Sequence record: LC494302.1
Strand: one strand, 5' to 3'
DNA from: Escherichia phage SP27
Length of the DNA stretch: 64,000 nt
Under the pieces are notes generated by a model. That model saw nothing but the letters and a program-made list of their open reading frames with translations. It was not told the origin of the DNA and searched no databases. The position numbers were made by a program, and so were the translations under genes. Of this stretch, positions 9,550-38,106 are shown piece by piece; the stretch's first letter is position 1; each line of letters starts with the position of its first letter.

Positions 9550-9560
9550 AGGATTACATA

Positions 9561-10148: not shown

Positions 10149-10164
10149 ATTAAGGAAAAGAAAG

Positions 10165-12894
10165 ATGTCATCAAAACGAATTATAGGAAGTGCCGAGATC
10201 CTTGGGAACTTGGCAATTGGACAAAGGTACGCTATGCGTACTTTTAATGGAACCTCACCGAATGCCAATACTGGAATTGTTCAATATCCAATATATAAGC
10301 GTTCAGAAGTTCAAAGTATTTTAGATATGTTGCCTATATCACGTGTAGGAGAAATGGATTACTTACCATTAAACGTAAGTGGATCGTATGAAGGTGCTAC
10401 ACCTATGTCAAGTGACCAAGTAGTTCAGCCAACAATTATTGAAGATGATGGAACCGCCGTTGTTCTGCGTAGCGGAACCAATGGTAGTACTAAAGGTTTT
10501 TATTATTCATTTATACGAGATCTCCGAAATATAACTATGATTTCACAAGAAAGTGTTATTTCAACCAATTCAATGTATAAACCTTCAATTATGAGTAGTA
10601 CTGAAAATATTAAGTATTTTATTGGCTCTAATGGTTATGAGATGCTTGGATGTTTAAGTACTGAAGATAATTATATTTTTACTATAACCAATGGCACATT
10701 TAACGAAATATCACATATTCATGCTAAAGTTCCAAGTACTTCTTTTGGTAATGATATGCCAATATATACACATATTGTTGGGACAAAGGTTTATATTTGG
10801 TGTAAAGATAAAAGTGTTTCTAATTTAGGATTAGCACTTTCAATTTATACAGTAGAGCTAAGTGATGTGAAAGCAAGCTCAATGGCATCATTAACAAAAG
10901 TTACTGGGTTATCAGGTCAAACTGTTCGAAACACAAGTTATTCTGCATCTAATAACATAAGAGTGTTCGATAAATTATATAGTGTTGGTACTAGCTCGGA
11001 TTCATTATTCGAAGTTACATCACCAGTATCACGTGTAGAATTTTCAGACTATACAGACTTTAACATTCAAGCCAACGTTAGTCCTGATTTATCAAAAATA
11101 CGTGTAACTTTATATCCAACACATCGAATGGTTACACCTTTGTATATTTCAACAGTTTATGGTACTGGAATAAGTTTTGTTTATAATATAAACTCAAAAT
11201 CTATGTCACTAGATGGTAGTGCTCGTGCACCTGCAACTGTTTCATATAATAATGGATTTCAAGTTTCTAACCCATTTGAAATTAATATGGTCAACTTCAC
11301 AGGGACAACTGCTGCTGGTGTATTAGGAAACGCAGGTGGTTTATGTCAAACTAAAGATGGTTTGGTATTTGCATCTAAATTTAGATGGAGTTCAACTGAA
11401 TTTTATGGTCTACAACGATATAAGGTTAGTGGGACACCGTTTGATTCATGGGTTGCCAGTACTAGAACCGCAAGTAACGTTATAAATGCAAACGTTTTAC
11501 CAGTTTTTGGTAGTGCTGTTGGTGCAAACCTTTTAGGTGTACGTTTCATCGATAATAGAAAAATATTATTAGCATGTTCTGGTACGTATGATGATGTAAC
11601 ATATAATTATAATAATACTGTTTTTTCTGAAATAGGTTCACAACCAACATATCAATATAACTCAGTTCAAAATAATACTACATTAAATGGTTTTGCACCA
11701 CAATCTAATCGTAAACAAATAGGCGATGATTTTACATACACTGCTATGATTTCTCTTGTTGATACCGATGGTAGTGTTAGATGCTATGGAACATCATTCA
11801 TTGAAGGTGTATATAAAACAAGTGGTGGATTATTAAATCCAGATACTTTAGAATTTGATGAAACATATACAATAGAACCAACGGTATTAGAATCATTAAA
11901 ACAAGATATTTTTGCTAATATAGGAAACTCTGGCATTGTTGGTACACTATCTGGACAAATTGTATTATATTATGTACCTGATAATACTTTTTCTAAATCC
12001 ATCGCAGTAGTTTCAGCATATAATCTTAACAATAACCAAGGTTATGCAATCTATGCCGAAGTTGATGTTGTATTATCTGGAACTAACATAACTTCAGCTA
12101 CATTGGTGAGTACTAGATATGAGACACTTAGTTCTGTTACAGGAATTATTACTGAAGCATATATGAAACGTTGTACTGGTCTAACAGTTGCAAAATATTC
12201 AGGATTTGGTTACATTGGTGTTGATGCTGTTCATCAATTTTCACAACCAGGTAATGCACAATTTAAGATGATGATAGCTAAAACAGTAGATGGTGTCATA
12301 ACATCAAATCGTTTTTTATCATCTAGTTACATCCAACTTGGTGCAGCATATCAACATGGTGTTATTCCTGGTGTTGGTTTTGGATATTACAATTTTCAAG
12401 ATTCTGACTATCAAACCAAATCTGTATTCAGCGTTTTTGGTACAACATCTGCTGAAATGGATGGTTTAATTAGCGGAAATGGTAGCGTTAAAGAAAAGAT
12501 TGTGGTAGTATCACAAGACGTTGCACAAGGATTCTCAGTGTACTTTACACGTGAAGTTCCGGTGTTTTTAGGTGGAATTTTCGACAGACTACCTATACAA
12601 AGTGTTGATTTAAGTACTGTAAAAAGTAACCCAGCTAATACTACGTTCTATTTGTATATACAAATGAACAGGAATACTAAGAAAGCGTCATATGTTATTA
12701 GTACTGAAACAATTGATGAATCTTTAACTAGCACTTACATTGGTAAGATAGTTACTGGAACTTCAGGAATAACTTCAATTGATACAGAAAAAGTAACTCG
12801 TTTTTTGACATATCGTCCAAGTACAACGAAACGTGGTTCAGCGATACCTGCCAGTACTGGTGTACCATCAGGTCCAGGTACACGTTGGAAATAA
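10165..12894 (+). CDS. tail fibre-like structural protein C (about 909 aa)
   Basis: Start placed at ATG 10165 (AAGGAAAAG RBS; ORF track gives 10075, overlapping the upstream gene). Shares the VVSQDVAQGF...KSNPANTTFY module and C-terminal module with protein A. Confidence 0.5.
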   Translation: MSSKRIIGSAEILGNLAIGQRYAMRTFNGTSPNANTGIVQYPIYKRSEVQSILDMLPISRVGEMDYLPLNVSGSYEGATPMSSDQVVQPTIIEDDGTAVVLRSGTNGSTKGFYYSFIRDLRNITMISQESVISTNSMYKPSIMSSTENIKYFIGSNGYEMLGCLSTEDNYIFTITNGTFNEISHIHAKVPSTSFGNDMPIYTHIVGTKVYIWCKDKSVSNLGLALSIYTVELSDVKASSMASLTKVTGLSGQTVRNTSYSASNNIRVFDKLYSVGTSSDSLFEVTSPVSRVEFSDYTDFNIQANVSPDLSKIRVTLYPTHRMVTPLYISTVYGTGISFVYNINSKSMSLDGSARAPATVSYNNGFQVSNPFEINMVNFTGTTAAGVLGNAGGLCQTKDGLVFASKFRWSSTEFYGLQRYKVSGTPFDSWVASTRTASNVINANVLPVFGSAVGANLLGVRFIDNRKILLACSGTYDDVTYNYNNTVFSEIGSQPTYQYNSVQNNTTLNGFAPQSNRKQIGDDFTYTAMISLVDTDGSVRCYGTSFIEGVYKTSGGLLNPDTLEFDETYTIEPTVLESLKQDIFANIGNSGIVGTLSGQIVLYYVPDNTFSKSIAVVSAYNLNNNQGYAIYAEVDVVLSGTNITSATLVSTRYETLSSVTGIITEAYMKRCTGLTVAKYSGFGYIGVDAVHQFSQPGNAQFKMMIAKTVDGVITSNRFLSSSYIQLGAAYQHGVIPGVGFGYYNFQDSDYQTKSVFSVFGTTSAEMDGLISGNGSVKEKIVVVSQDVAQGFSVYFTREVPVFLGGIFDRLPIQSVDLSTVKSNPANTTFYLYIQMNRNTKKASYVISTETIDESLTSTYIGKIVTGTSGITSIDTEKVTRFLTYRPSTTKRGSAIPASTGVPSGPGTRWK

Positions 12895-12898
12895 ATTT

Positions 12899-12929
12899 AA
12901 AGCTCGTCTATTGACGGGCTTTTCTTTTA
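12899..12929 (+). terminator. terminator-like hairpin overlapping a promoter
   Basis: aagctcgtc-tatt-gacgggctt stem (one G-U pair) followed by TTCTTTTAT. Confidence 0.4.
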
Positions 12930-12939
12930 TGTGTATAAT
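12911..12939 (+). promoter_or_regulatory. sigma70-like promoter (TTGACG-17-TATAAT)
   Basis: -35 TTGACG and -10 TATAAT with 17-nt spacer, about 20 nt upstream of a GGAGG RBS and ATG 12962. Confidence 0.4.
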
Positions 12940-12961
12940 TGAATAAAAATAGGAGGAAATT

Positions 12962-13528
12962 ATGGTCAAAACTTTATTACCACCACCAAAACGTCACAAA
13001 ATCAAAGAAATGAAAGAACAACGTACATTAAAGATGTACAACAATTTAGTTAAGTTACTGTGTAAAAGTCCATCGCTCAAAGCAGAGTTTAAAACTGATG
13101 ATGACCGTAAAGCACTAATTGAGATGAAATATATGCTCAGTAAAATGTCCTTTTACAAATTTGTAAAAGAATACGCATCTGACCCATTTAGTCCTCGTTG
13201 GAGAGCCAAACCAAGAGAGTATTTTTACGGTGGTTCATATACAGATCGCATTCAAGACACAGTGATGGGAGTTGAATTTGAAATCGATTATGAGCCGAAT
13301 GGTGAGGAAATCTTGCAGATTGAGAAACGTTTACCAAGTGAAGAAGAAATTTATGTTTATGCAAGAAAACTTTCAAATTACAGTTCAAGAATTACTCTAG
13401 GCAATTTAGATTCATTAATTATTTTCTATACACGTGTTGGTGTAGATAAGATGGTAACTAAACTCAATGAACTTTCATTACAACAAAAACAGATTAATGC
13501 ATACAAAGACATTACTGATTTATACTAA
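12962..13528 (+). CDS. hypothetical protein, tandem paralog 1 of 3 (188 aa)
   Basis: Strong RBS; shares the motif [D/N]D.[D/N]R[K/R].[L/I]I[E/D].KY.LSK and a W....F.G..Y segment with the next two ORFs. Confidence 0.5.
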   Translation: MVKTLLPPPKRHKIKEMKEQRTLKMYNNLVKLLCKSPSLKAEFKTDDDRKALIEMKYMLSKMSFYKFVKEYASDPFSPRWRAKPREYFYGGSYTDRIQDTVMGVEFEIDYEPNGEEILQIEKRLPSEEEIYVYARKLSNYSSRITLGNLDSLIIFYTRVGVDKMVTKLNELSLQQKQINAYKDITDLY

Positions 13529-13534
13529 TGAGGA

Positions 13535-14056
13535 ATGGATATGTTTTTTGGATCAGTTGGAAAACAAAACAGTACTTTAATTTGGCATGAAATTATCTTC
13601 AAAATTATATCTAAAAGCTACTCACTAAAGGATATTATCACCACAGATAATGATAGACGTATCCTGTTAGATGCAAAATATAAATTGAGCAAACACCCTT
13701 TACTTTCTTTAATCATTGATTACGTTAATGATTATGAATCTAGTCGTTGGAAGTGGGAAGACGGCGGTTTATTTCGTGGAAAAACATTCTACGGTGCGGA
13801 ACGATATGTTTTCAGTGATGCATCAAATGGCGTTAAGTTTGTTATTAGAAACTTTAACTCCAAAGAAAATGATTATCTTGAAAGTGGAGTGAAAGTATAT
13901 ATCGATAATAATAGCAATGTCCTAACATATGACGAATCACTAATTATGTTACAAATAATGCGTGGTGTTGAAGGTGTAAGAAACAACCTTACTAAATTGA
14001 AAATCCAGCAAAATGATATACATAATAGACAGAAAATTAAGGGTTTATATAAATGA
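13535..14056 (+). CDS. hypothetical protein, tandem paralog 2 of 3 (173 aa)
   Basis: TDNDRRILLDAKYKLSK motif shared with paralogs 1 and 3; start may be 13541 (better RBS spacing). Confidence 0.5.
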   Translation: MDMFFGSVGKQNSTLIWHEIIFKIISKSYSLKDIITTDNDRRILLDAKYKLSKHPLLSLIIDYVNDYESSRWKWEDGGLFRGKTFYGAERYVFSDASNGVKFVIRNFNSKENDYLESGVKVYIDNNSNVLTYDESLIMLQIMRGVEGVRNNLTKLKIQQNDIHNRQKIKGLYK

Positions 14057-14562
14057 TTTCATTTTTCAAAAAGAAACAAAAAGTTGATGAAACAGGATTA
14101 GAATCGTTTCTATGGACTCTTATCATCAAAAAAAGTCCATTGATAAAAGAATATGCTATCAATGATGCTAATAGAAAAACTATCATTGAATACAAATACG
14201 AATTATCAAAATGTGATCCAATCGTTTATCACTTTGCGAAGTACTGTTCAAAAAATTTATCGGATATCACAATAGACCATGAGTCAGTTCCAATGAGCTT
14301 TCCTTATGGTGATTGGGTAGATACTTTTGATATTTTTGATGGGTCCAATGGATTCAGTTTCTTTTACTCGTCAAATAAAGCAAATGTTCGTATTAAAACA
14401 GAGATAGGTTGGGCACAGCATAGCTCAAATAAAGAAGATTATAATTTACTAGCTGACGTATACCGAAGTGTGAAGAATTCAAAGGATATTGATGAAAGAA
14501 TTAAAAAGCAAAATCGTATTTCTTTATCACTTGAAACATACAAGTCAAAGTATGGTGGTTAA
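14053..14562 (+). CDS. hypothetical protein, tandem paralog 3 of 3 (169 aa)
   Basis: NDANRKTIIEYKYELSK motif shared with paralogs 1 and 2; ATGA coupling with the upstream gene. Confidence 0.5.
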   Translation: MISFFKKKQKVDETGLESFLWTLIIKKSPLIKEYAINDANRKTIIEYKYELSKCDPIVYHFAKYCSKNLSDITIDHESVPMSFPYGDWVDTFDIFDGSNGFSFFYSSNKANVRIKTEIGWAQHSSNKEDYNLLADVYRSVKNSKDIDERIKKQNRISLSLETYKSKYGG

Positions 14563-14564
14563 CG

Positions 14565-14966
14565 ATGACTACAGTTGATGATATCTACAGCACTATACGC
14601 AATATGAGTACAGATAGAAAAGTATTTGGTGATAAAGAAAAATCTAAGTGTTATGGTATTGATTCTTTTGATATAATTTCTTATGAGTACAACACGAGTG
14701 GAAATAGTTCACTGAATATCGTCTGCCCTCGTGACCCAGAAAATAATTTTATGTATGTTGAAATTAATAATGATGGAATATTTTTTACAAAAGTTTTTAA
14801 AGGTGGAATTAATTACGAACCAATTGAATGTATGAATGAAGAAACTTTCTTTCAAGAAGATACAATTATCAATTTAGGTTTTAGTTTTGATGATTATAAA
14901 ACATTAGAACATGACTTTAATCGTTATTATAACGGTTTCTTAAAGGAGTTAACAATTTATCTATGA
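14565..14966 (+). CDS. hypothetical protein (133 aa)
   Basis: ORF coupled between the paralog trio and the nucleotidyltransferase gene. Confidence 0.45.
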   Translation: MTTVDDIYSTIRNMSTDRKVFGDKEKSKCYGIDSFDIISYEYNTSGNSSLNIVCPRDPENNFMYVEINNDGIFFTKVFKGGINYEPIECMNEETFFQEDTIINLGFSFDDYKTLEHDFNRYYNGFLKELTIYL

Positions 14967-16195
14967 ATAACCAATATGTTGAACAAACAATAGTGAAACA
15001 CTTGGCTGGGTCACAAGCCTACGGAACCAGTACACCTGAAAGTGATACTGATTATCGTGGTATTTTTCTTGCTAATAAAGAATTTATTCTTACGCCATTC
15101 TATAAGGTCAAAGAAGTAGCTGATAAAAATGAAGAAGATACTAAATTCTATGAGTTAAATCAGTATTTAAAATTATACACTGAAGCCAACCCTAATATAT
15201 TGGAATCACTATGGGTCGAACCAGAACACATTGTAGAAAGTACTGAGATTTATGACTATCTTCGTTCATTTAACCAAAAACTTCTTAGTTCTAAGATTGC
15301 ATTTTCATATACTGGATATGCATATAATCAGATTAAGCGTATGACAAATCACCACGGTTGGATGGATAAAGAGCGTATTGCTGAAAAACGTTTAAATGAG
15401 ATTTTAGAAGAACACCCAGTCGATGAGGTTCTTGCGTGGATGTATGATTCATTTCCACAATATCTTGTTGAACGTTTAGATACATCGAACTTACATCCAT
15501 TTAATGCTAAAAAGATTGATTTTGAAAAATATATGCGTGATACGTCATTGCAGTTAGTTTCGAAAAATCCATTAAAGCAATATCATTTTGTAAAATTAGT
15601 GCATAACTACACTACTGACAAAATTCTAGATCGTGATTTCAATTTATTGAATTTTAATAATGGCTATGAACTAATTCATTACGGAGAAAACATTTTTGCG
15701 ATTATTAAAAATCCGAATGAAAGCACTATCAACGGTGATGGATCATTGCGTTATTTTTCTAAAGAGCGTAGTACTGAAGAGTTGAAAACTAAACCAGAAC
15801 TAATTGTCAAATTTAACGAAAAAGAATATCAGGAAAATAGTGAGAATAGGAAAAGTTATCATAAATGGAAAGAAAATCGTAATGCCAAACGTGCTATTTT
15901 AGAATCACAACACGGATACGATTGTAAACATGCTATGCACACAATCCGACTTTTGAATAGTGCAGAAGAAGCATTACAAAGTGGAATTATTCAAGTTAAA
16001 CGACCAGATGCACAAATGTTGATGGATATTCGTAATGGTAAATGGAAGTATGAAGAAGTATTAGAATATTTCGATGATAAAGTACAATACATTCGTGATG
16101 TTCTATATAAGAAATCAGTACTTCCTAAAAAACCAAACATCAAGTTAGCATCAAAAATTATCATTGATATTAGAGAAATGCAATGGTATAAGTAA
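14963..16195 (+). CDS. predicted nucleotidyltransferase (Pol-beta superfamily, GS-x9-DxD type)
   Basis: N-terminal HLAGSQAYGTSTPESDTDYRGIF matches the G[S/G]...YG...SDxD..G signature of minimal/predicted nucleotidyltransferases; 410 aa. Confidence 0.6.
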   Translation: MNNQYVEQTIVKHLAGSQAYGTSTPESDTDYRGIFLANKEFILTPFYKVKEVADKNEEDTKFYELNQYLKLYTEANPNILESLWVEPEHIVESTEIYDYLRSFNQKLLSSKIAFSYTGYAYNQIKRMTNHHGWMDKERIAEKRLNEILEEHPVDEVLAWMYDSFPQYLVERLDTSNLHPFNAKKIDFEKYMRDTSLQLVSKNPLKQYHFVKLVHNYTTDKILDRDFNLLNFNNGYELIHYGENIFAIIKNPNESTINGDGSLRYFSKERSTEELKTKPELIVKFNEKEYQENSENRKSYHKWKENRNAKRAILESQHGYDCKHAMHTIRLLNSAEEALQSGIIQVKRPDAQMLMDIRNGKWKYEEVLEYFDDKVQYIRDVLYKKSVLPKKPNIKLASKIIIDIREMQWYK

Positions 16196-16272
16196 CATAT
16201 ACAAGTGTAATGGTACTAAAAATGCCATTACACTCAATAAATACTCAATATAAATTAACACAAGGATTAAGT

Positions 16273-16401
16273 ATGGCACAACAAATTTTCACAGATATCC
16301 ACACTACCGGAGTTATTAAATTTCAAAATAATTTTTCAGGTGCAACTGGTGTAGACATTAAAAATGATGGTTTTAACATTGTCAGTACTCGGATCTATTG
16401 A
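16273..16401 (+). CDS. small ORF (42 aa), possibly the 5' part of a frameshifted gene
   Basis: ATG 16273 with AAGGA 6 nt upstream; ends inside the start of the next ORF, which is in the +1 frame. Confidence 0.25.
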   Translation: MAQQIFTDIHTTGVIKFQNNFSGATGVDIKNDGFNIVSTRIY

Positions 16402-16900
16402 TGGTGAAGATAGTTCTCTTAGTGATTCTGTGATTGCATCATTCGGAACTAATAAAAACAGTTCTTTTATTATATCTGGATGGACTGGAATGACTGATTC
16501 TGAAAATAATGTTAAGATAAAAGCTAAATCTACTAACGAGAATCATGAAACAGAATGGGTAACATTATATGATAGTGCAAGTAATAAGTTATATAATGTA
16601 CTAAGTTCTAATAACATTTTAATTAATCCACTGTCGGGTAATGCTGTTTTTAATATTAATTTATCTGATAGAAATACTACTATTTCGATTGGTGCGGCTC
16701 CTACTGAAGTTTATTCAATTACCATCCTATTAACACAACAAACAGGTTCAAACCTAGTTAATTGGGGTTCTAATGTTAAATGGTCATATAACAGACCAGT
16801 TGTTCTTTCTTATGAAATTGGCGAAAAAGATATTATTTCATTAGAAACATATGATAAAGGAGTTACATGGTACGGTGCATTAATTAGAGCAGGAGTATGA
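16364..16900 (+). CDS. hypothetical Ser/Thr/Asn-rich protein (178 aa)
   Basis: ORF lacking a clear RBS at its ATG and overlapping the upstream small ORF by 38 nt; composition resembles virion fibre/decoration proteins. Confidence 0.4.
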   Translation: MMVLTLSVLGSIDGEDSSLSDSVIASFGTNKNSSFIISGWTGMTDSENNVKIKAKSTNENHETEWVTLYDSASNKLYNVLSSNNILINPLSGNAVFNINLSDRNTTISIGAAPTEVYSITILLTQQTGSNLVNWGSNVKWSYNRPVVLSYEIGEKDIISLETYDKGVTWYGALIRAGV

Positions 16901-16901
16901 T

Positions 16902-19691
16902 ATGTTAAACAATAATATTGATAATATTGTACAACTTCTTTATGGGCATCACAAATTTATTGAAAGAAATACTGGTGATACAATAGACCCAACAGTACAA
17001 CATTATGTGGTGAATAATCAGGGTGTTTTGGCGAACAACCGTCATTTTATTAACTATTCTGCAATGGAAGGTCAACCAAACGGTGACGGGACAACAGAAG
17101 GTCAAAGTCTATTAATTTTAGGATACATTTATGCGTATCTGGCAACAAATGATCCAATGTTTTTAGATAAAGCCAAATGGTACTGGGATGCATATCATCA
17201 GTACTTTTATGCTGGGCGTGAATTACCAGACCCACCAACCCCACTGCAATGTAACTGGATAGTTAATGCCAAAGAACCGATTTTGGCTAACTGGCCTTTA
17301 GCTGATGATGGATGGCCTACACATGGTGGTTTCAAGGGTGTAGAATTTACATTTACAAATGGACAATGTAAAATACCACATGGTGCACCTTATTATGGTC
17401 AGTTCTTGGATAAAGTAACATTTGCATTCAAAGGTGCTTTAGCATGGAACCAAATAAATGCGTCAGTAAAAGCATTATTACCAGATGGTAGTGTTGATTG
17501 GGATACACCAGGTGAACAATATGATGTTGACTGGATTATCGATTTCATGGGTAGAAAAATCGACTGGGATGGTAATATTTTAGCAGAAGGTTTTGACGAA
17601 TCTGAAAAAGGAACTGTTCAATTAAAGAATACAACAATTAATGGTGTATATAAATTAAATTTTGCAAATCGTCAACCAGTAGAATATGGTGGTGTGATAA
17701 TTCAACGAAATGAAATGCAACACAACCGCCCTCTTCATGTTCCAATTGATTTGGAATTTGCTGATAACGCATCAGATGCAGAATTATGGTTTAGTGATGC
17801 TTCTTATTTGTTATATAAAATAACAAAAGAAAGAAAACATTATTTGGGTTGGAAATGTTCACTACTAACGTGTTATGCTTATGGTGATATTGACTCCAGA
17901 GATAAATTTTTCAGACAAAGTACAATTGTAACCACACCATTCACTGATGGTATTTCCTATGAATATTTTTATCCAAGTGATGCTATTGCTAAGTTTGGTA
18001 GAAATTCTCTAGGATATATTACTATCAGGCAAGACCAAAGTGCACAAAGTACTATGGAACAACAAGCTATTTGGTTCAGGGTCAATGCTGATTCTAAATT
18101 ACTTGTAGACTATGGTGGTGTATGTGATGATGGTAAGCCGTTATCATTTAAACCAGTACTGGAATTGTCAAAAACAAAAAATGACCATGATGTTGTTCGT
18201 TATCGTTGTGGCTTACCGGAAAGTAAAGACCAAAATATCACACATTCATTAACACCTTTAAGTGCATTTGTTAGAGAAAAGAAAGCAGATGGTTCCCCTT
18301 ATATAATTGCTGATAGTAGAATTGTTGTTCCTTATGGTGCAGCTACGTCCGAAATGATATATAGTACTGATATATTAGTTACACGCCGCGATACCATTAA
18401 TCAGTTAGTTTGTGGTGAAGATGATGGTGCTGTTATTGGATTTTGGCTATTAGCAACAAATAAGTCTGAAGTTAAATCTTTTACCTATCGTTCATATGAA
18501 GATGATTACAATATAAGAATTGTAGATGATAATGGTTGGAGATGGTGGTGGATGATTCCTGCAACACACGGGGAATGGACTACAATCACACTAAGTTCCG
18601 ATACATTACGTTTATCTGGGTATCAGCCAAATCATCCAAGTTCTGACCCAAGACCAGATGCACCAGTTTATAGTGAACTAGAAGATATTACTATTTTACC
18701 TGATACAACCCCAGTAGATGGTGTTGCTGCAATAATTGATTGGTATTGTATTAATGACATTCCAGAATTATACACGGATGCTGACGGTGATGACTATACT
18801 ATGACATTTTCAATAACAATTGCAGGTGAATCACCATATACTGCACAGTTAGGGGATTGTGTAATCAAGGATTATTTGTTAAACTCATTGCATTACACAC
18901 CAGGAACAATACCATTTTCTAACATCACTGACCCGTATGCGAACCAGTATTCAGGATGGCGTGGTTTACCGTATCCAGGTTATCAATATCCTGTGATATA
19001 TTGTTTTAAAGACCAGCCGGTAGATAACACACGCTTAGGAAACATGTTAAGCTTTATGAAAGATTCCCAAACATGGTTTACTCAACAATTCGGTACTGTT
19101 GGTCCGTGTGCACAAGCATATGTTTGGAACCGCTGGGATAACTTAAAATATGGTGAACCAGATACATTTACTATGCTACATTGGGGTGATCAAGCATGGA
19201 GTGGGTATGAACCACGTGCGTTCTTTGGGGCTGCCAGAGCATGGCAAGAACTCGCAGAGAGAGGAATTGAACCACCAGCAGATCTTGTTGAATTTTGTGA
19301 GAATTGGATTCACTTTTTAATTCAATTTCAAAAAGATAATGATGGTCGTTCACCAACAATCTTCAATAAAGATGGCACAGTTGAAGGTCCAGATTGGGAC
19401 TTTACAGGTCATATGTGTGGGTTGTGGTTAGCTGGGGCTTGTGCTGCTGGATTGGCTGGATGTAAAATAGAAGGTCTAACAACACTCGCTGATAACTTAG
19501 TTCTCGAACTTCAAAAGAATTATGTTATTGTAAATCCAGGTTCACCAATGAATGGTTCATGGAGTCCAGCAGTTAGAGAAGGTACTGATAATGGTATGTT
19601 TTTTGGTTTCTGGGCAGGTGAGATTATGCGTGGATTGGGATTATACTCAATGTACCGCTTAAACACACCAAATCGTTTCCGTGATTTATAA
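16902..19691 (+). CDS. large hypothetical protein (929 aa)
   Basis: Long uninterrupted ORF, Trp/Tyr/Gly-rich (WRWWWM, CGLWLAGACAAGLAGC); no catalytic motif recognised. Confidence 0.55.
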   Translation: MLNNNIDNIVQLLYGHHKFIERNTGDTIDPTVQHYVVNNQGVLANNRHFINYSAMEGQPNGDGTTEGQSLLILGYIYAYLATNDPMFLDKAKWYWDAYHQYFYAGRELPDPPTPLQCNWIVNAKEPILANWPLADDGWPTHGGFKGVEFTFTNGQCKIPHGAPYYGQFLDKVTFAFKGALAWNQINASVKALLPDGSVDWDTPGEQYDVDWIIDFMGRKIDWDGNILAEGFDESEKGTVQLKNTTINGVYKLNFANRQPVEYGGVIIQRNEMQHNRPLHVPIDLEFADNASDAELWFSDASYLLYKITKERKHYLGWKCSLLTCYAYGDIDSRDKFFRQSTIVTTPFTDGISYEYFYPSDAIAKFGRNSLGYITIRQDQSAQSTMEQQAIWFRVNADSKLLVDYGGVCDDGKPLSFKPVLELSKTKNDHDVVRYRCGLPESKDQNITHSLTPLSAFVREKKADGSPYIIADSRIVVPYGAATSEMIYSTDILVTRRDTINQLVCGEDDGAVIGFWLLATNKSEVKSFTYRSYEDDYNIRIVDDNGWRWWWMIPATHGEWTTITLSSDTLRLSGYQPNHPSSDPRPDAPVYSELEDITILPDTTPVDGVAAIIDWYCINDIPELYTDADGDDYTMTFSITIAGESPYTAQLGDCVIKDYLLNSLHYTPGTIPFSNITDPYANQYSGWRGLPYPGYQYPVIYCFKDQPVDNTRLGNMLSFMKDSQTWFTQQFGTVGPCAQAYVWNRWDNLKYGEPDTFTMLHWGDQAWSGYEPRAFFGAARAWQELAERGIEPPADLVEFCENWIHFLIQFQKDNDGRSPTIFNKDGTVEGPDWDFTGHMCGLWLAGACAAGLAGCKIEGLTTLADNLVLELQKNYVIVNPGSPMNGSWSPAVREGTDNGMFFGFWAGEIMRGLGLYSMYRLNTPNRFRDL

Positions 19692-19692
19692 C

Positions 19693-19721
19693 TTGACATA
19701 GAAAAAGTAATTATGTATAAT
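19693..19721 (+). promoter_or_regulatory. sigma70-like promoter (TTGACA-17-TATAAT)
   Basis: Perfect -35 and -10 hexamers with a 17-nt spacer immediately after the upstream stop codon. Confidence 0.5.
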
Positions 19722-19722
19722 C

Positions 19723-19753
19723 AGAGAACTTCATATGGAGTTCTCTTTTTTTA
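19723..19753 (+). terminator. hairpin plus T7 tract immediately downstream of the promoter -10
   Basis: agagaact-tcatatgg-agttctct followed by TTTTTTT; either the terminator of the upstream gene or a leader attenuator. Confidence 0.5.
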
Positions 19754-19765
19754 TAAGGTGATAAA

Positions 19766-20185
19766 ATGTTAAATGAACGTATTAAAAATGCACTACATGT
19801 ATTGAACCAAGAAGTAAATTCTATTGATAAAAGTACTGACCGTTATAAAGTAATGCATGAAATCAAACAAGAATTGGAATCTATTAATAAGGGAGAATGG
19901 TGGTATCTTCAGCCCGAATATCAAACTCGTGAATTAAACGATGTTGAAAAAGAAATTGTCAAATTCATCACTACTCGTTACTGTGATACATCAGAGAATG
20001 AGGTATCAGCGAACTTCAATCTTACTAAATTGGAAGTCGAAGAAAAATTCAATTTTGATTGGCTTGATTGGATTGAAATGGTCATGGAACTAGAAGAAAA
20101 ATTCAATGTTGAAGTTGATGAAAAGTTCGAGAATAATGAAACGAAGCTGTATGAACTAGTAGAACATATTCAAAAAATGTTGTAA
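19766..20185 (+). CDS. hypothetical acidic protein (139 aa)
   Basis: ORF downstream of the promoter/hairpin; Glu-rich with coiled-coil-like composition. Confidence 0.45.
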   Translation: MLNERIKNALHVLNQEVNSIDKSTDRYKVMHEIKQELESINKGEWWYLQPEYQTRELNDVEKEIVKFITTRYCDTSENEVSANFNLTKLEVEEKFNFDWLDWIEMVMELEEKFNVEVDEKFENNETKLYELVEHIQKML

Positions 20186-20238
20186 AACTATACAATTGTA
20201 TACTCTAAATAATATCATCAACTATAGGAGATATTATT

Positions 20239-20613
20239 ATGAGTATGTTAGAAATAATTGTTTCAAAAATTCTTATTCCATTTTGGAAACCAATTTCTTT
20301 TGTATTATTAATTGGCGGTTCAGCTTATGCTGGTTGGGAAGCTAATACTTATTACAGTGGATATCAACAAAGCATAGAGCAACAAATAGCTAAAAAAGTT
20401 GATACCGCCTTGGATAAAATGCAACAAGAAAATGCAAAAAATTACCTTGAAACTAAAAAAATCATGGAAGATAATGCTAAAGTTATTGAAACAAAGGTTC
20501 CTTTTATTGTAGAACGTGAAGTTTATAAGAATGTATGTTTAGATGAAGATGGTGTAAAAGTACTGAATGAACTAAAACAAAATTCTCAAGCAGCGAGGAA
20601 TAAATTCAAATGA
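20239..20613 (+). CDS. putative i-spanin (Rz-like inner-membrane spanin)
   Basis: Single N-terminal transmembrane segment (ILIPFWKPISFVLLIGGSAYAGW) then a charged helical periplasmic region; immediately upstream of a lipoprotein ORF. Confidence 0.5.
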   Translation: MSMLEIIVSKILIPFWKPISFVLLIGGSAYAGWEANTYYSGYQQSIEQQIAKKVDTALDKMQQENAKNYLETKKIMEDNAKVIETKVPFIVEREVYKNVCLDEDGVKVLNELKQNSQAARNKFK

Positions 20614-20918
20614 AAAAATTATTAGTTCCGTTTATTTCTTTTTTAATTATAAGTGGGTGTGCCGAACAAGTAAAACTACAATCCCCTGCACCAATTAAAC
20701 AAGAAATTCTGTTAGAAAGATGTGATGATGATACACCTCTACCACAAAAAATTATGATTGACAAAAATGGTTTTAAAGGTTATGATGGTGCAGAAATTCT
20801 TAAAGTACTTACTCGTTGGGATGCAGTCTACAATGAATGTGCTTTAAAACATGACGCATTGATTAAAACTATTCGTGATTTACAAGGTAAAGATATTAAA
20901 ATCAATATCAAGGAATAA
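20610..20918 (+). CDS. putative o-spanin (Rz1-like outer-membrane lipoprotein)
   Basis: Signal peptide with lipobox IISGC, Pro-containing mature region; ATGA-coupled to the i-spanin candidate; separated (non-embedded) as in T4 pseT.3/pseT.2. Confidence 0.5.
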   Translation: MKKLLVPFISFLIISGCAEQVKLQSPAPIKQEILLERCDDDTPLPQKIMIDKNGFKGYDGAEILKVLTRWDAVYNECALKHDALIKTIRDLQGKDIKINIKE

Positions 20919-20919
20919 A

Positions 20920-21531
20920 ATGAACAAATATCATGTTTACTATACGACAAAATTATCACTTCTTGAAGAATTAAATCAACGAAGTACTAAGATGAAACGC
21001 TACACTTTAAATGGTATTACTTTTCGATATTTCCCACAAAAAGTTCTTACTTTTGTTAAGAATCCAAAATGCGTGGCATGTGGGATTGAAGCTACTGAAG
21101 TACGCATTGAACGTTCATTATGTTCTGATCCAGTATATGGTAAACCACATTTAAATGTATATGCTGTATGTGGTCTTTATGAAGTTTTAATGACAGTTGA
21201 CCATAATCATCTGGCATCTAAGGGTGGACCTGATTTAGAGTCAAACTTTAATACTATGTGCTCCAGATGTAATCAACTACGTTCGAATAAAACTGAAACA
21301 GTTGATGAGTTTCTTGAAAAAGTTAAAGGTCGTAATCTTCTCCAAGAACATATGAATAATTTCTTTAATGTACAAAAAAAGAAAAATAACATTGACAAGT
21401 CGAAACTACTAGAAGAACGTAGGTTACGTCAAGAATTATGGGAAACCGATCATCTATGGCATGTTCGAGAGTTTGGTCGTCATATGAAAGCTTTGAAAAA
21501 AGAACAGAAGAAATTGAATAAACATGATTGA
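20920..21531 (+). CDS. HNH endonuclease (free-standing homing endonuclease-like)
   Basis: HNH signature: CxxC, DHNHLASKGG, NFNTMCSRCNQLRSNK; start placed at ATG 20920 with AAGGAA RBS (ORF track gives 20875). Confidence 0.7.
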   Translation: MNKYHVYYTTKLSLLEELNQRSTKMKRYTLNGITFRYFPQKVLTFVKNPKCVACGIEATEVRIERSLCSDPVYGKPHLNVYAVCGLYEVLMTVDHNHLASKGGPDLESNFNTMCSRCNQLRSNKTETVDEFLEKVKGRNLLQEHMNNFFNVQKKKNNIDKSKLLEERRLRQELWETDHLWHVREFGRHMKALKKEQKKLNKHD

Positions 21532-21543
21532 TATGATATTATA

Positions 21544-21573
21544 AGGACTTGAGTATTCAAGTCCTTTTTTTTG
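21544..21573 (+). terminator. rho-independent terminator
   Basis: aggacttga-gtat-tcaagtcct hairpin followed by TTTTTTTT. Confidence 0.6.
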
Positions 21574-21583
21574 GAGAAAATAA

Positions 21584-21940
21584 ATGAAATCTAAAATCTT
21601 TTTACCACAATTAATGTGGCATCTAGCAGAGTTAGATGAAAATGATGAATTTACTGACTATGGTGCATGGGATGACAGTACTGAAACTTTTAAACCAGAT
21701 GTAAAATATAAAATCATCTACAATGAAAGCAAAGGGCACAGAAGGTGGACTGAAGAATTTGATCTCGTATTTCTTGACATGAGCACAAATAAGTTTTATC
21801 ATTGTACTTATGAACGAGGTTTAACAGAAGATAGACCAGTACAACCATTCAGTAATGAAACTGATGGTGTTAAGTGCAATGAAGTTTCTGTAACCAGAGA
21901 AGAAATTATCACTTATCGAACTTTGTGGAAATATTTGTAA
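21584..21940 (+). CDS. hypothetical protein (118 aa)
   Basis: ORF after a terminator with a GGAG-containing leader. Confidence 0.45.
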   Translation: MKSKIFLPQLMWHLAELDENDEFTDYGAWDDSTETFKPDVKYKIIYNESKGHRRWTEEFDLVFLDMSTNKFYHCTYERGLTEDRPVQPFSNETDGVKCNEVSVTREEIITYRTLWKYL

Positions 21941-21941
21941 A

Positions 21942-22340
21942 ATGCTTAAAGAATTAGATTTTTCAAACTTAGAAATTATCAGTGCTGTAAAAAACATTTC
22001 CGATATGGGAGATGAGAAAGCAGTTCTTGTTACTATTACTTTTGTAAAAGAAAAAGATAGCTATAGCCATTTAACTGGTATTGAAGAACTAATTCATAAA
22101 ACCAATCTTGAGAATGATGGTAAACTCATCAAGCTTCAGGCTTCATATACGCAAAAAACGTCAAATTTTATAGACCTAAATAATGTAGTCAAGGTGGTAT
22201 ACAATCATCCTGAACACACATATAGGAACACGACAAGAAATGAAAATGTTGCTAACGATTCGAATATTATCGAAGATGTTGAATTCATAAACACAATTTT
22301 TGATCGTTGTTCTAAGGATTTAAAAAAAGTATACATGTAA
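21942..22340 (+). CDS. hypothetical protein (132 aa)
   Basis: ORF tightly coupled to the upstream gene. Confidence 0.45.
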   Translation: MLKELDFSNLEIISAVKNISDMGDEKAVLVTITFVKEKDSYSHLTGIEELIHKTNLENDGKLIKLQASYTQKTSNFIDLNNVVKVVYNHPEHTYRNTTRNENVANDSNIIEDVEFINTIFDRCSKDLKKVYM

Positions 22341-22892
22341 TGGGACATTATATGTTCCAATGATATAATGTATATAGAAAATGACAACGGACATTGAAAA
22401 ATGGACACTGAGAACCTACTTCTCTTGAAAATGTAAAGGATAGATGAGCTTTACCGTTGTAGCGAACAGCAGAAGAAACCTGTTAGAGTACTGGCATTCA
22501 AACAAACACGATGTAAGACCACGAATCACGGCGACACGGCTGTATAAAGAACTCCGATAAGCATACAGAGAGTTCCTAGATAGATGTATAAGGTTCGCAC
22601 CTTACCAGATTTGCTAAGGGAGTTCAAGGATAGCGGACGCAATTTTTACAAGAAAGTTGCGTCCAAAATTTGAGAACAAGTACTACTTTGATCGAATAGA
22701 GTTAGTACTGAGTGCTGTTGATGAAAAGACCAGCGACCGTTGCATATGACTGCGATAGAGAGAAACCGAGCAACCCGCTTTCGCTCTCTAAATTTTGGTA
22801 CAAGAAAGATCCGTCCAAAATTTGAGAAATTCGCAATTCGATAATATCCGATGCCATCATCGTCAAGAGAGACTTAATTGTCTCTTTTTTAT
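22341..22892 (+). ncRNA. candidate structured non-coding RNA region (family unknown)
   Basis: About 550 nt with no credible ORF, visibly GC-richer than flanks, several hairpins (ggacgcaa...ttgcgtcc; aaattttgg...ccaaaattt) whose loops share UACAAGAAAG, ending in a terminator. Strand inferred from the terminator. Confidence 0.3.
22866..22892 (+). terminator. rho-independent terminator
   Basis: agagac-ttaatt-gtctct hairpin followed by TTTTTTATT. Confidence 0.55.
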
Positions 22893-23030
22893 TACCTTCA
22901 TTCCCCTGTGGGGGGATGTAATAGTCCTCAACAAATCCCGTCAAGTTTTTAAAGTACATTATCATTTTCAGAAGGAACTAGTTTACGAAGTAAACGCAGT
23001 GACTTCTTGAGTTACGAGAGAACGAAGTGA

Positions 23031-23459
23031 ATGAGTAACACAACGAAAATATCCGATAAATCCGAATTAACACAAATGTTATTCAAAGAATATTTTGAGT
23101 TTCAGATAAAAGACGAACATCAATTACCACAGCAATATTTGAAAAGAATTAAAGATCCGTCAGTAATTACTAAAGAAACTAATTTTTATAATAGTATTTT
23201 GGATTTCGTTAAATCAGTTCATACAACAAGACCTATTGTAGTTTTGTTTTTTGATAAATCTATTCCTTTAGTAGTTCCTGAAAATGTATTTTTTATTTCA
23301 GAAACTGATTTAAATAATCAAAGTACTGTAAGTAGATTAAGAAATTGCTTACTTGTAGTATGTGATTCTTCTTTGTATAATAACAGAATACTATGGGATA
23401 GAAGTAAACGCAATGCAGTTTCTGAAATGAATCCTGAAATTACCTTTATTATTAACTAA
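23031..23459 (+). CDS. hypothetical protein (142 aa)
   Basis: ORF starting after the non-coding stretch; no motif recognised. Confidence 0.45.
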   Translation: MSNTTKISDKSELTQMLFKEYFEFQIKDEHQLPQQYLKRIKDPSVITKETNFYNSILDFVKSVHTTRPIVVLFFDKSIPLVVPENVFFISETDLNNQSTVSRLRNCLLVVCDSSLYNNRILWDRSKRNAVSEMNPEITFIIN

Positions 23460-23491
23460 ATAATAAGAGAATAACTCTAAGGAGAGATATT

Positions 23492-23932
23492 ATGGAAGAT
23501 ATTAATGATTTACGACACGTAATGGACTTTATCGGAAGTACTGAAGAAGATAATTCGTATGATGAAGTACTATTAACTTTTATTGAAAATAGTTTGTTTT
23601 TAAGTTCTGCTGCACATAACTGGCACTTACAATGTCATTTTTATACAAAGCATTTACAATTAGATGAACTATATAAAGAATTACCAGAATATGTGGACGC
23701 ATTTGTTGAAGGTATCATGAATAATCGTGGTGCTTTACAAGTTGGAACTGGTAATAGTTATCGTTTTACACCAATTGAAGATTGTGTACCAATTCTTGAA
23801 GAATATGTTGAGCAATGTAGAGCAATTCATGATATGCTTGAAGAATCAGGTGATTACGGCAGTGTAAACACATTAGAAGATATTATGAGTTTTGTTGAAG
23901 GAACACTTTACAAACTTAAAGTTTTACAATAA
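23492..23932 (+). CDS. hypothetical His-rich helical protein (146 aa)
   Basis: GGAG RBS; several conserved-looking His (HNWHLQCH) suggest a helical-bundle metal-binding fold; speculative. Confidence 0.45.
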   Translation: MEDINDLRHVMDFIGSTEEDNSYDEVLLTFIENSLFLSSAAHNWHLQCHFYTKHLQLDELYKELPEYVDAFVEGIMNNRGALQVGTGNSYRFTPIEDCVPILEEYVEQCRAIHDMLEESGDYGSVNTLEDIMSFVEGTLYKLKVLQ

Positions 23933-23939
23933 AATATAT

Positions 23940-23969
23940 GGAGAGTCATTGTGACTCTCCTTTTCTTTT
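23940..23969 (+). terminator. rho-independent terminator
   Basis: ggagagtca-ttg-tgactctcc hairpin followed by TTTTCTTTT. Confidence 0.55.
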
Positions 23970-23980
23970 GGAGAAATAAA

Positions 23981-24598
23981 ATGAAATCTCATGATTTAGC
24001 AAAATTACTACTATCTCAACCAAATCTAGAAATTTATCATTATGATGCAGAGAGTGACTTGCATTATCAGAATTTTGATAATAAATTAATGGTCACCCCA
24101 TCTGGCATTTTCACAACGGTAAAACCCACATCAGTTTCTGAAAATGTACTTACACCATACGAAACCCCGCTCTTGGGTCATGTACAAATTTTCTTTAAGG
24201 ATGGTACTATTACTCCAAAATTGGAGGGTTCATCTATTCAAACTGTTCTTAACTTAGAATCTGGGTTGATATTTAACATTCCTTATGAAAAGCCAATTGT
24301 TTTATTAGGTAAAAATCAATCAGCACCATCAGGGAATCAAAATGCTGTTTGGTATACACCCGATGATATTGATTTCATTTCAGTACTGACAGAATATGAT
24401 CCTAATACTTGGCATGAAACATGGGAAAATATGTCATATGATGAAGCAATTGAATGTGGTAAAAATTTAGCCAAAATGTTATTTCCACAAAAAGAAGAAC
24501 TTTCACAAGAACAAATTGATTCATTTTCTAAAGATTTTCCTGATTCTGAATTCAATGTAAAAGTATCACCTTCTATGATTGATAAAATTGAAAAATAA
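23981..24598 (+). CDS. hypothetical protein, paralog family X member 1
   Basis: ATG 23981 after GGAG; N-terminus MKSHDLAKLLLSQPNLEIYHYD is homologous to the ORF at 25334. Confidence 0.5.
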   Translation: MKSHDLAKLLLSQPNLEIYHYDAESDLHYQNFDNKLMVTPSGIFTTVKPTSVSENVLTPYETPLLGHVQIFFKDGTITPKLEGSSIQTVLNLESGLIFNIPYEKPIVLLGKNQSAPSGNQNAVWYTPDDIDFISVLTEYDPNTWHETWENMSYDEAIECGKNLAKMLFPQKEELSQEQIDSFSKDFPDSEFNVKVSPSMIDKIEK

Positions 24599-38012: not shown

Positions 38013-38106
38013 ATTATAAACAATAAGGACTGGACAATTAAATCCTTCAATAAATAAGACTATACGAATATATTTCGAATAACCAATTATTTTTGGAGGA
38101 TTTAAT

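Follow-up and report, generated by a model that had tools for sequence, protein, structure and literature searches.

The 64-kb stretch of Escherichia phage SP27 DNA analysed here (record LC494302.1; hereafter the window, whose positions serve as coordinates throughout) very probably carries, at 22341-22892, an autonomous gene for a structured non-coding RNA (ncRNA) of ~515 nucleotides (nt). The RNA is read from the + strand, with a sigma-70-like promoter of its own and an intrinsic terminator, and both of its ends are predicted. Alignments of more than 70 diverged copies indicate strong selection, acting at the RNA level, on its fold, which includes at least two solid pseudoknots. The family is absent from Rfam 15 and from the literature searched, and it joins the few large orphan structured RNAs, being unrelated to them by every test applied. 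With regard to function, we consider it on balance probable that the folded RNA acts in trans, working with host components or alone, and no single mechanism can be rated better than unlikely.

The original prediction had described the interval as free of open reading frames (ORFs), enriched in GC, rich in hairpins and closed by a terminator, and each of these features was recovered. Between the stop of the upstream gene at 22340 and the next start codon at 23031, the + strand holds no ORF longer than 38 amino acids (aa). The GC content of 22300-22900 is 0.37-0.42, compared with 0.25-0.33 in the flanks, and every structural element that had been described was found in its place. The minimum free energy (MFE) fold of the predicted transcript reached -130.8 kcal/mol with a z-score of -3.3, and none of 100 dinucleotide shuffles (0/100) folded equally well.

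The predicted promoter occupies 22341-22369 on the + strand and consists of a -35-like TGGGAC (22341-22346), the TG of an extended -10 element (22361-22362) and a TATAAT box (22364-22369); a consensus promoter scan returned GGGACA-16-TATAAT with TG. The arrangement is that of a sigma-70 promoter with an extended -10, namely TG-n-TATAAT with TGRRAY ~17-18 nt upstream, from which a transcription start at ~22376 is predicted. The TG-n-TATAAT element is near-invariant in all phage copies of the RNA, lying ~14 nt downstream of a TGGGAC, TGAGAC or TGAAAC element, and the copies in bacterial islands keep TGAAAC...TATAAT or TATACT. Phages CBB and GAP32 were reported to possess a 'divergent RpoD-like' promoter in which TGAAACG replaces the -35 box, and 11 of the 18 such promoters of CBB lie upstream of CBB_258-329, a region rich in DNA-synthesis genes (PMC5259590). 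Judged by its motifs, the promoter of the RNA gene is of this same class. In the genome of phage PBECO4 (NC_027364), all 16 occurrences of TGRRAY-N14-TGNTATAAT lie on the main coding strand, and four of them drive copies of the RNA; the signal appears to be the Asteriusvirus version of the CBB/GAP32 'TGAAACG' class.

At the other end of the gene, an intrinsic terminator is located at 22865-22890 (+ strand). It comprises a GC-containing stem of 9 bp (22865-22873/22880-22888) with the loop UUAAUU, directly followed on the transcribed strand by a U-run that extends to 22890. The hairpin and its T6-7 tract are kept in 21 of 29 homologues, and four of the six stem pairs counted for covariation (22868-22873/22880-22885) change on both sides. 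A simple terminator scanner missed this hairpin, probably because, as we read the scanner's rule, the extended stem consumes the T-run. Promoter and terminator together delimit a predicted mature RNA of ~515 nt at 22376-22890, and a hidden Markov model (HMM) of the family matched the window once, at 22371-22891 (E = 1e-105).

A degraded coding remnant, which had been named beforehand as the finding that would count against a stable RNA, or a small-protein gene deserves hardly any credence as an explanation of the interval. Such a reading could draw on GenBank, where one to six hypothetical proteins are annotated under the match, and on two ORFs, one of 87 aa on the minus strand (22702-22965) and one of 38 aa on the plus strand. 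The longer ORF is annotated in several records (for example as gene 516 of phage 121Q), and other, shorter ORFs are annotated in phages G17 and A4, but the annotations are inconsistent between records in both position and strand. Stops or frameshifts break the 87-aa ORF in phages Turkey5 and A4 and in all other copies, and the annotations are therefore probably spurious. The + strand ORF begins at a conserved AUG within GAUGAG and runs for 38 codons here and for seven in paralogue B, as read from the alignment. No ORF was conserved on either strand; the substitutions are compensatory in helices and show no codon periodicity.

Searches against known RNA families were equally negative. ARAGORN found no transfer RNA (tRNA) or transfer-messenger RNA (tmRNA) gene in the window, and Rfam 15 gave no gathering-level match in the window and none at E <= 10 within 22376-22890 on the + strand. 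Two overlaps at the edges were at chance level, one to P9 at 22885-22950 (18 bits against a gathering threshold of 43) and one to the small nucleolar RNA (snoRNA) Afu_199 on the minus strand, and no consistent Rfam matches were obtained in 11 phage and 8 bacterial homologous loci. The families held in Rfam 15 include group I and group II introns, RNase P, 6S, hammerhead, ROOL, GOLLD, OLE, HEARO, pRNA and STAXI. The location of the interval had earlier been likened to the tRNA and stable-RNA cluster of phage T4. This analogy was not supported, as the window lacks any tRNA, tmRNA or Rfam match and the related copies are dispersed paralogues that form no RNA cluster. The literature searched by topic and by signature sequence contained no description of the RNA.

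Covariation was then assessed on family alignments built with MAFFT. The structure was derived from an alignment of 29 sequences (A1), in which helices were extracted by scanning all column pairs, giving 13 helices with 67 pairs. As the structure had been chosen on A1, the count was repeated on a second alignment (A2), which comprised the window copy and 42 sequences unused in the derivation, and in which 60 pairs were counted. Sliding the 3' partner by 1-3 columns and 500 shuffles served as controls. Standard pairs were formed by 96.8% of the cells in A1, compared with 35-45% with slid partners; 53 of the 67 pairs showed changes on both sides, with 377 such cells as opposed to 32-53 after sliding. 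The corresponding values for A2 were 95.4% of cells paired (33-45% slid), 51 of 60 pairs compensatory, and 549 double-change cells (60-89 slid). None of the 500 shuffles reached the observed count in either alignment. The obtained results showed that the 13 helices, including three pseudoknots (PK1, PK2 and PK3), covary. Several pairs are mainly G·U on the + strand (for example GU in 24/29 and UG in 23/29 sequences) and would be A·C mismatches on the other strand, which indicates that the functional molecule is the + strand RNA. With covariation in 71 homologues and a conserved pair of promoter and terminator, the earlier claim of a stable structured RNA gene ending in a terminator is strongly supported.

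The derived model divides the RNA into two domains, a 5' domain at ~22416-22620 and a compact 3' domain at ~22680-22842, all of whose elements lie on the + strand. The 5' domain contains the hairpins Pf, Pg and Pb, the long-range helix Pd and the small pseudoknot PK3. Hairpin Pf (22424-22438) has a stem of 22424-22426/22436-22438, extendable with a bulge, and a conserved loop GAAAAUGUA; all three pairs change on both sides, and 92% (A1) and 97% (A2) of the cells are paired. Following an invariant GAUGAG, hairpin Pg (22448-22463; 22448-22450/22461-22463) is paired in 100% of the cells in both alignments, with the types UA/CG/AU and AU/UA/CG. Helix Pd (22466-22543; 22466-22470/22539-22543) encloses the conserved AGAAGAAACCYGUUAG, a variable arm present in a long or a short form, and CACGGCRAYRCGGC, and shows 97% (A1) and 100% (A2) of cells paired with three to four of its five pairs compensatory. 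All six pairs of hairpin Pb (22549-22575; 22549-22554/22570-22575) are compensatory, with up to five pair types per position, such as GC10/CG8/AU7/UA3/UG1 in A1. Pseudoknot PK3 (22534-22587) joins ACA at 22534-22536 to UGU at 22585-22587 and thereby crosses both Pd and Pb. Its variants AUG/CAU, ACA/UGU and AUA/UAU covary and 98-99% of the cells are paired; at 3 bp it is the weakest of the three pseudoknots on account of its shortness.

The 3' domain is organised around helix Pc (22751-22835; 22751-22755/22831-22835), which closes the core and encloses Pi and Pe; 98-100% of its cells are paired and four to five of its five pairs are compensatory. Hairpin Pa (22680-22708; 22680-22690/22698-22708) forms 11-12 bp, and its pairs are compensatory throughout (11/11 in A1 and 10/10 of those counted in A2). 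The 7-bp pseudoknot PK1 (22691-22842) arises where the Pa loop, AUCGAAU at 22691-22697, meets AUUCGAU at 22836-22842, a segment that directly continues the 3' strand of Pc. Here 99.5% of the cells are paired and all seven pairs covary in A2. Hairpin Ph (22713-22735; 22713-22717/22731-22735) shows 88-92% of cells paired, with two to three of four pairs compensatory. Hairpin Pi (22758-22782; 22758-22762/22778-22782) is formed by GAGAG/CUUUC around a conserved 15-nt loop, AAACCGAGCAACCCG, and is paired in 100% of the cells; GAGAG/CUUUC, GGGAG/CUUCC, GGAAG/CUUCC and ACUGG/CCAGU were all found, and a G·U pair is conserved (GU 24/29). Within the Pi loop, GCAAC at 22770-22774 pairs with GUUGC at 22739-22743, part of the near-invariant CGACCGUUGC, to form the 5-bp pseudoknot PK2 (22739-22774). 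PK2 is paired in 100% of the cells of 29 and 43 sequences; its last pair varies as CG30/UA10/AU3, and the variants are GUCAU/AUGAC in paralogue D and GUUGU/ACAAC in others. Helix Pe (22785-22827; 22785-22788/22824-22827) has four of four pairs compensatory.

Further elements lie outside or between these helices. A small 5' hairpin, P1 (22392-22403, CAUU-GAAA-AAUG), appears in the MFE and centroid folds; its sequence is variable, and by eye the other copies have a hairpin of differing sequence at this place, where the alignment is poor. The centroid fold includes a hairpin UAAGG/CCUUA (22589-22593/22600-22604), for which UAAGG/CCUUA, UGAG/CUCA and UAGG/CCUA variants were seen by eye, the alignment register shifting there. 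The near-invariant GCUAAGGGAG at 22611-22620 is single-stranded, and its AAGGGA is invariant across A2. A small 3' hairpin of the MFE fold (22849-22862, CGAUG-CCAU-CAUCG) lies in the conserved CCAUCAKCGUCA and has alternative registers in other copies. Several additional motifs were considered and set aside. A possible fourth pseudoknot of ACCCGUUAG with CUAAGGGAG was not taken up, as both strands are nearly invariant and covariation is thus uninformative, and the long-range pairings GAGC/GCUC (22446/22783) and GUUGC/GCGAU were dropped, as they clash with far better supported helices. A kink-turn (K-turn) formed by CUGA...GAUGA flanking Pf was rejected for the window copy, since A-type copies read CUAC or CUAA, not CUGA, and a sarcin-ricin-like AGUACGA was rejected as not conserved.

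Each paralogue carries its own matched PK1 loop and partner strand; the pairing therefore takes place in cis or between identical molecules, and not between paralogues. This bears on the suggestion that the RNA is a self-assembling 'ornate' RNA, that is, an RNA-only homo-oligomer in the manner of ROOL, GOLLD and OLE, in which PK1 or the peripheral module described below would pair between molecules and the multiple gene copies would supply stoichiometric amounts. ROOL, GOLLD and OLE are reported to form homo-oligomeric complexes (PMC12286853). Like these orphan-function ncRNAs of ~500-800 nt, the window RNA has many covarying helices together with pseudoknots and is encoded by a free-standing gene on phages or prophage-like elements; at ~450-520 nt it also exceeds the ~400 nt above which RNAs free-standing on phages and islands with such folds are classed as ornate. 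A self-matched PK1 in each paralogue would be compatible with homomeric pairing, though not diagnostic of it, as it is equally explained by an intramolecular loop-to-strand pseudoknot stacking on Pc. In the Rfam scans, however, nothing in sequence or structure matched ROOL, GOLLD or OLE at E <= 10, and no homology to them was detectable. Their hosts are Firmicutes or rumen and lake organisms, whereas those of the window RNA are Enterobacterales and jumbo phages; unlike ROOL and GOLLD, the window RNA has protein genes and not tRNAs as neighbours; and unlike all three, it is present as four to five old paralogues per phage genome. We therefore regard self-assembly of this kind as rather unlikely.

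A precedent for covarying loop pairing is the packaging RNA (pRNA) of phi29, which is likewise phage-encoded, independently transcribed and structured, and whose loop-loop pairing covaries; the loop-to-strand pairing of PK1 could in principle be intermolecular in a comparable way. The phi29 pRNA differs in being 120-174 nt long, single-copy and confined to phi29-like phages, while the window RNA has no Rfam match and has copies in chromosomal islands without packaging genes.

Two hairpins built from different stems had been noted to present the same loop, and both were confirmed as inverted repeats at 22635-22646/22653-22664 and 22790-22798/22815-22823. They share a direct repeat of 30 nt (22647-22676 and 22799-22828; 28/30 identical) that begins with TACAAGAAAG and ends with GTCCAAAATTTGAGAA, and which is the sole significant non-self BLAST match of the region against the window (E = 1.4e-7). 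Both hairpins are copies of a swappable peripheral module of ~40 nt within the larger conserved fold, with the consensus ...UACAAKRWAG-WUSCGUCY-AAAAUUYG.... Site 1 follows GCUAAGGGAG and site 2 is the tip of Pe. In line with the inverted and direct repeats, module copy 1 spans 22632-22676 (+ strand) and is built of GGACGCAA/UUGCGUCC around UUUUUACAAGAAAG, followed by AAAAUUUGAGAA, and module copy 2 spans 22790-22828 (+ strand). Among the 29 copies, 13 carry the module at site 1 only, 10 at site 2 only, four at both and two at neither, so that 27 of 29 have at least one; the four with both are the A-type copies, to which that of the window belongs, and one other.

The sequence of the module motif is constant though its partner strand differs. 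The pairing partners are an upstream GGACGCAA and UUGCGUCC at site 1, AAAUUUUGG and CCAAAAUUU at site 2, and UACAA and UUGUA in GAP32-type copies. This behaviour fits a docking or binding arm that would work from either of two positions, and on this view the two positions are presumably close in three-dimensional space. The shared UACAAGAAAG...GUCCAAAAUUUGAG motif may plausibly serve as a repeated binding site, as the original prediction proposed. We also observed that (A)TC-N-CGTC[CA]A occurs four times in the window copy (22655, 22808, 22855 and 22934), in both modules, before the terminator and in the block that follows it; the motif might be a recurrent site for the binding of a protein to the RNA or to the DNA.

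The distribution of conserved nucleotides raises the question of catalysis. Near-invariant segments of the family include GAAAAYGUAGA, AGAUGAG, GAAACCCGUUAG, CACGGCAAUGCGGC, GAUAGACAUAUAAGG, GCUAAGGGAG, CGACCGUUGC and GAGAGAAACNGAGCAACCCGCUUUCG. If the RNA were a ribozyme, the pseudoknotted core with its invariant unpaired nucleotides would be the catalytic centre, either processing the RNA itself or acting on host or phage RNA. In keeping with this, near-invariant single-stranded or junction segments (GAAAAYGUAGA, AGAUGAG, GAAACCCGU, CACGGCAAUGCGGC, GAUAGACAUAU, UAAGGGAG, CGACCGUUG and GAAACNGNNCAACCCGC) flank the pseudoknots of sequences that are otherwise 54-69% identical, and the peripheral module has two alternative sites, much as peripheral elements do in large ribozymes. 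Yet no known ribozyme model (group I and II introns, RNase P, hammerhead and others) matched at E <= 10, and neither a cleavage site nor a substrate can be inferred, which makes a ribozyme distinctly unlikely. The resemblance of GAUGAG...CGA to a hammerhead core is only superficial: a hammerhead-like GAUGAG-hairpin-CGA was rejected, as it has no Rfam match and the equivalents of U4 and A14, which we take to be key positions of the hammerhead consensus, are not conserved.

The region is 99.7-99.9% identical to Escherichia and Salmonella jumbo phages of the genus Asteriusvirus (such as PBECO4, 121Q, G17 and phAPEC6), to which the window itself belongs. The non-coding core is better conserved than the coding flanks, identity to Turkey5 rising from 82% over 901 nt including flanks to 89% over the 561-nt core, and identity to A4 from 77% to 81% over the same lengths. 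Outside the genus only the core aligns, at 67-73% identity in GAP32, CBB, fHe-Yen9-04, BF, Erwinia phages and Munch/7t3, and in RaK2 and K64-1 a core fragment alone aligns. Homologues are present in all Rak2-like genera, with four to five matching places per genome, and every significant match in a phage collection of 50,697 records was a Rak2-like jumbo phage.

The complete PBECO4 genome (~350 kb) carries four paralogues on one strand, with a mutual identity of 69-73%. Copy A (37,887-38,576) is the counterpart of the window copy, copy B (~304,851-305,471) lies between a small gene and endonuclease VII, antisense to its neighbours, copy C is at ~93,624-94,225, and copy D (~194,960-195,557) adjoins a sigma-factor gene. 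BLAST and the family profile found no further paralogues inside the window. Copy B occupies the EndoVII/baseplate-hub locus in BF, Hallingskeid, Munch and PBECO4, and a copy adjoins the sigma-factor gene in both RaK2 and PBECO4. Given this shared placement, the duplications appear to be old and to predate the genera.

The promoter is kept with the RNA in every context, and the neighbouring genes differ between copies. These contexts make it very improbable that the element is a cis-regulatory leader or attenuator of the gene at 23031-23459, or a cassette marking a transcription-unit boundary. Its position upstream of a + strand gene and its terminal terminator could be so read, as could the C-type paralogues (for example PBECO4 copy C), in which a hairpin and T-run, such as GGTGACAGCAGAATATGTTGTCACCTTTTTTT, directly follow the TATAAT box and may be a 5' attenuator. 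However, the genes found downstream bear no relation to one another between paralogues or between genera, copy B is opposed by genes of the other strand, and island copies are followed by a convergent cI gene. An element of such size, with a fold kept without a conserved downstream gene, is unlike a leader.

Bacterial copies were sought in one genome per species with the degenerate signature GACCGTTG-N15-25-GAAACNGNNCAACCCGC. The scan gave 10 matches, nine of which are full-length homologues in chromosomes or metagenome-assembled genomes (MAGs) of Enterobacterales (Serratia, Citrobacter, Enterobacter, Silvania and Buttiauxella); the tenth lies on a contig of 2.8 kb that was assigned to a Clostridium bin. 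Another 85 loci came from a scan of metagenomes. The collected sequences form 71 non-redundant clusters at 95% identity, with a mean identity of 0.69 on core columns, and the 95 bacterial and metagenomic loci comprise 56 jumbo-phage-like loci, 19 of island type and 20 too short or unclear. Island and phage copies interleave in the clustering, which suggests repeated exchange.

The islands follow the order int > RNA > <cI, cro. A single copy of the RNA is located just downstream of a large serine recombinase or a tyrosine integrase, after which come a convergent cI-like repressor with S24 and helix-turn-helix (HTH) domains, a cro-like winged HTH (wHTH) gene and further island genes. Only two of 5,426 complete E. 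coli genomes carry the RNA. In strain LR-29-1 (NZ_AP027515.1, 3,473,000-3,483,700), a 10.8-kb island between ffs, encoding the signal recognition particle (SRP) RNA, and ybaA holds it in an unannotated gap of 1.4 kb, together with an IS3-disrupted integrase, DUF4326, DUF488 and dual-OB genes, and a resolvase. In Serratia fonticola, two tandem copies of rof, a modulator of Rho termination, adjoin the RNA-bearing island, an arrangement suggestive of insertion of the island into or beside rof, with a substitute copy supplied by the island.

The protein content of the islands was compared with that of the phages. Among the 10 chromosomal or MAG island loci tested, no protein in common with PBECO4 was detected except one DUF4326 homologue, encoded in PBECO4 at ~54,607-54,924. 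In 12 of the 19 island-type loci the RNA is accompanied by a gene, usually placed behind cI and cro, for a protein of ~286 aa that matched nothing in Pfam, PHROG or PADLOC and for which no homologue was detected in PBECO4. As islands and phages share essentially no proteins, a dedicated phage protein is probably unnecessary. The most likely partner of the RNA would then be a component that enterobacterial cells have in common; otherwise the RNA would work as a device made of RNA only.

We propose that the RNA acts in trans through its folded three-dimensional shape, and not as a cis leader, an antisense RNA or a coding sequence, and that it would need no phage-specific protein partner. The likeliest form of this proposal is a ribonucleoprotein (RNP) scaffold or a decoy for a component common to enterobacterial cells, with an RNA-only machine, be it a ribozyme or a self-assembling particle, as the alternative. 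Several old paralogues would supply dosage, and the movable module would serve as the docking or binding arm. That virulent jumbo phages and integrase-bearing islands alike carry the RNA suggests that it takes part either in conflict of phages with hosts or with islands, or in some basic step of giant-phage biology. More tentatively, and as a minority possibility, it may represent a new class of RNA machine (a large ribozyme or self-assembling particle) that uses no phage-encoded protein and that virulent giant phages have exchanged time and again with small integrative islands of the host bacteria. The boldest version, if true, would make the island copies weapons or parasitic devices against jumbo phages, or the reverse; equipped with the phage's own RNA module, down to its promoter type and post-terminator block, an island would either disturb an infecting Rak2-like phage or have itself amplified by it.

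Conservation runs ~60 nt past the terminator into a block at 22893-22945 (+ strand), which contains a hairpin of a pyrimidine run and a G-run (22899-22918) and CAAATCCCGTCAAG at 22932-22945. The block reads CAUUCCCC-UGU-GGGGGGAUG, then CAAAUCCCGUCAAG. In PBECO4 these motifs occur only beside the four copies of the RNA, and the bacterial island copies keep them. The pattern [CT]4-8-N2-5-G5-7 is present in 67 of 71 family members, and in its pyrimidine arm C and U replace each other while the facing G-run stays invariant. This variation suggests G·U pairing at the RNA level, and hence read-through or a second transcript.

The block also enters into a further reading, in which the element is a replication-origin module: its transcript would prime or open DNA by way of an R-loop, in the manner of ColE1 RNA II or the T4 ori(uvsY) and ori(34) transcripts, with the post-terminator block as the origin at the DNA level. 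As a corollary, an infecting jumbo phage could replicate an island through the island's copy. The ColE1 and T4 transcripts resemble the window RNA in being promoter-driven, non-coding and a few hundred nt long, and the T4 origins are, like it, multi-copy per genome and share a promoter class with replication genes. Four dispersed copies per 350-kb genome at conserved positions, a promoter class enriched upstream of DNA-synthesis genes in CBB (PMC5259590), and a block with repeated ATC-N-CGTCA and a G-run, found only beside RNA copies and kept in islands, would all agree with such a role. On the other hand, the known transcripts work by forming R-loops with neighbouring DNA and have no conserved tertiary core built on pseudoknots, and a primer or R-loop transcript needs neither three covarying pseudoknots nor invariant junction nucleotides. 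The transcribed region is GC-enriched, with no AT-rich unwinding element under or just after the transcript; the island module lies between int and cI with no adjoining replication gene; the cumulative GC skew of PBECO4 has no obvious inflection at the copies; and the C/U variation opposite the invariant G-run looks like pairing in RNA. An origin function is accordingly quite improbable.

Returning to the proposed trans-acting RNA gene, a number of points weigh against it or against parts of it. An RNA that ends at the terminator does not explain the block at 22893-22945, which hints at read-through, a second transcript or a role at the DNA level, and C- and D-type paralogues lack the 3' terminator. 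PK1 could be intermolecular instead of intramolecular, as covariation cannot distinguish the two. The small hairpins P1, UAAGG/CCUUA and 22849-22862 were placed by energy folding and by eye. The mechanistic half of the proposal was reached by exclusion. Lastly, the searched literature yielded no transcriptome for any Rak2-like phage.

Expression of abundant long ncRNAs has nonetheless been described in PA5oct, a jumbo phage distantly related to the Rak2-like group. Its putative long non-coding RNAs (lncRNAs), ncRNA001-004, are ORF-free transcribed regions of 236-619 nt, two of which account for 1-5% of phage reads (PMC7318152). No structure is reported for them, unlike the window RNA, and an nhmmer comparison of PA5oct 7000-24000 (ncRNA001 and ncRNA002) with the family profile gave chance matches only (E > 2).

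Large intricate RNAs are rare in bacteria and phages, and those that have been functionally solved (the ribosome, RNase P, tmRNA, and group I and II introns) are all fundamental, while ROOL, GOLLD and OLE are still unexplained. The covariation behind the present RNA is unusually clean, and as the RNA occurs in cultured E. coli phages (PBECO4, 121Q, G17 and phAPEC6) and in a handful of chromosomes of E. coli and Citrobacter, it is immediately tractable by genetics and structural work. The spurious 'hypothetical proteins' in dozens of GenBank records could give way to an ncRNA feature, and a covariance model could be added to Rfam.

The sequences flanking the gene were also inspected. Beyond the post-terminator block, 22946-23030 is an AT-rich stretch with a T4-late-promoter-like TTTTTAAAGTAC, for which other copies have TATAAAT or TATAAAG. 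A conserved hairpin, GTTTAC-GAA-GTAAAC, is located at ~22983-22997, upstream of the gene starting at 23031. Other copies likewise have sequence related to 22946-23030 behind the RNA module, including copies without a downstream gene on the + strand. On the upstream side lies an apparent spanin pair, an Rz-like gene at 20239-20613 and a lipoprotein gene at 20610-20918 with the lipobox LIISGC, which overlaps an HNH endonuclease ORF at 20875-21531.

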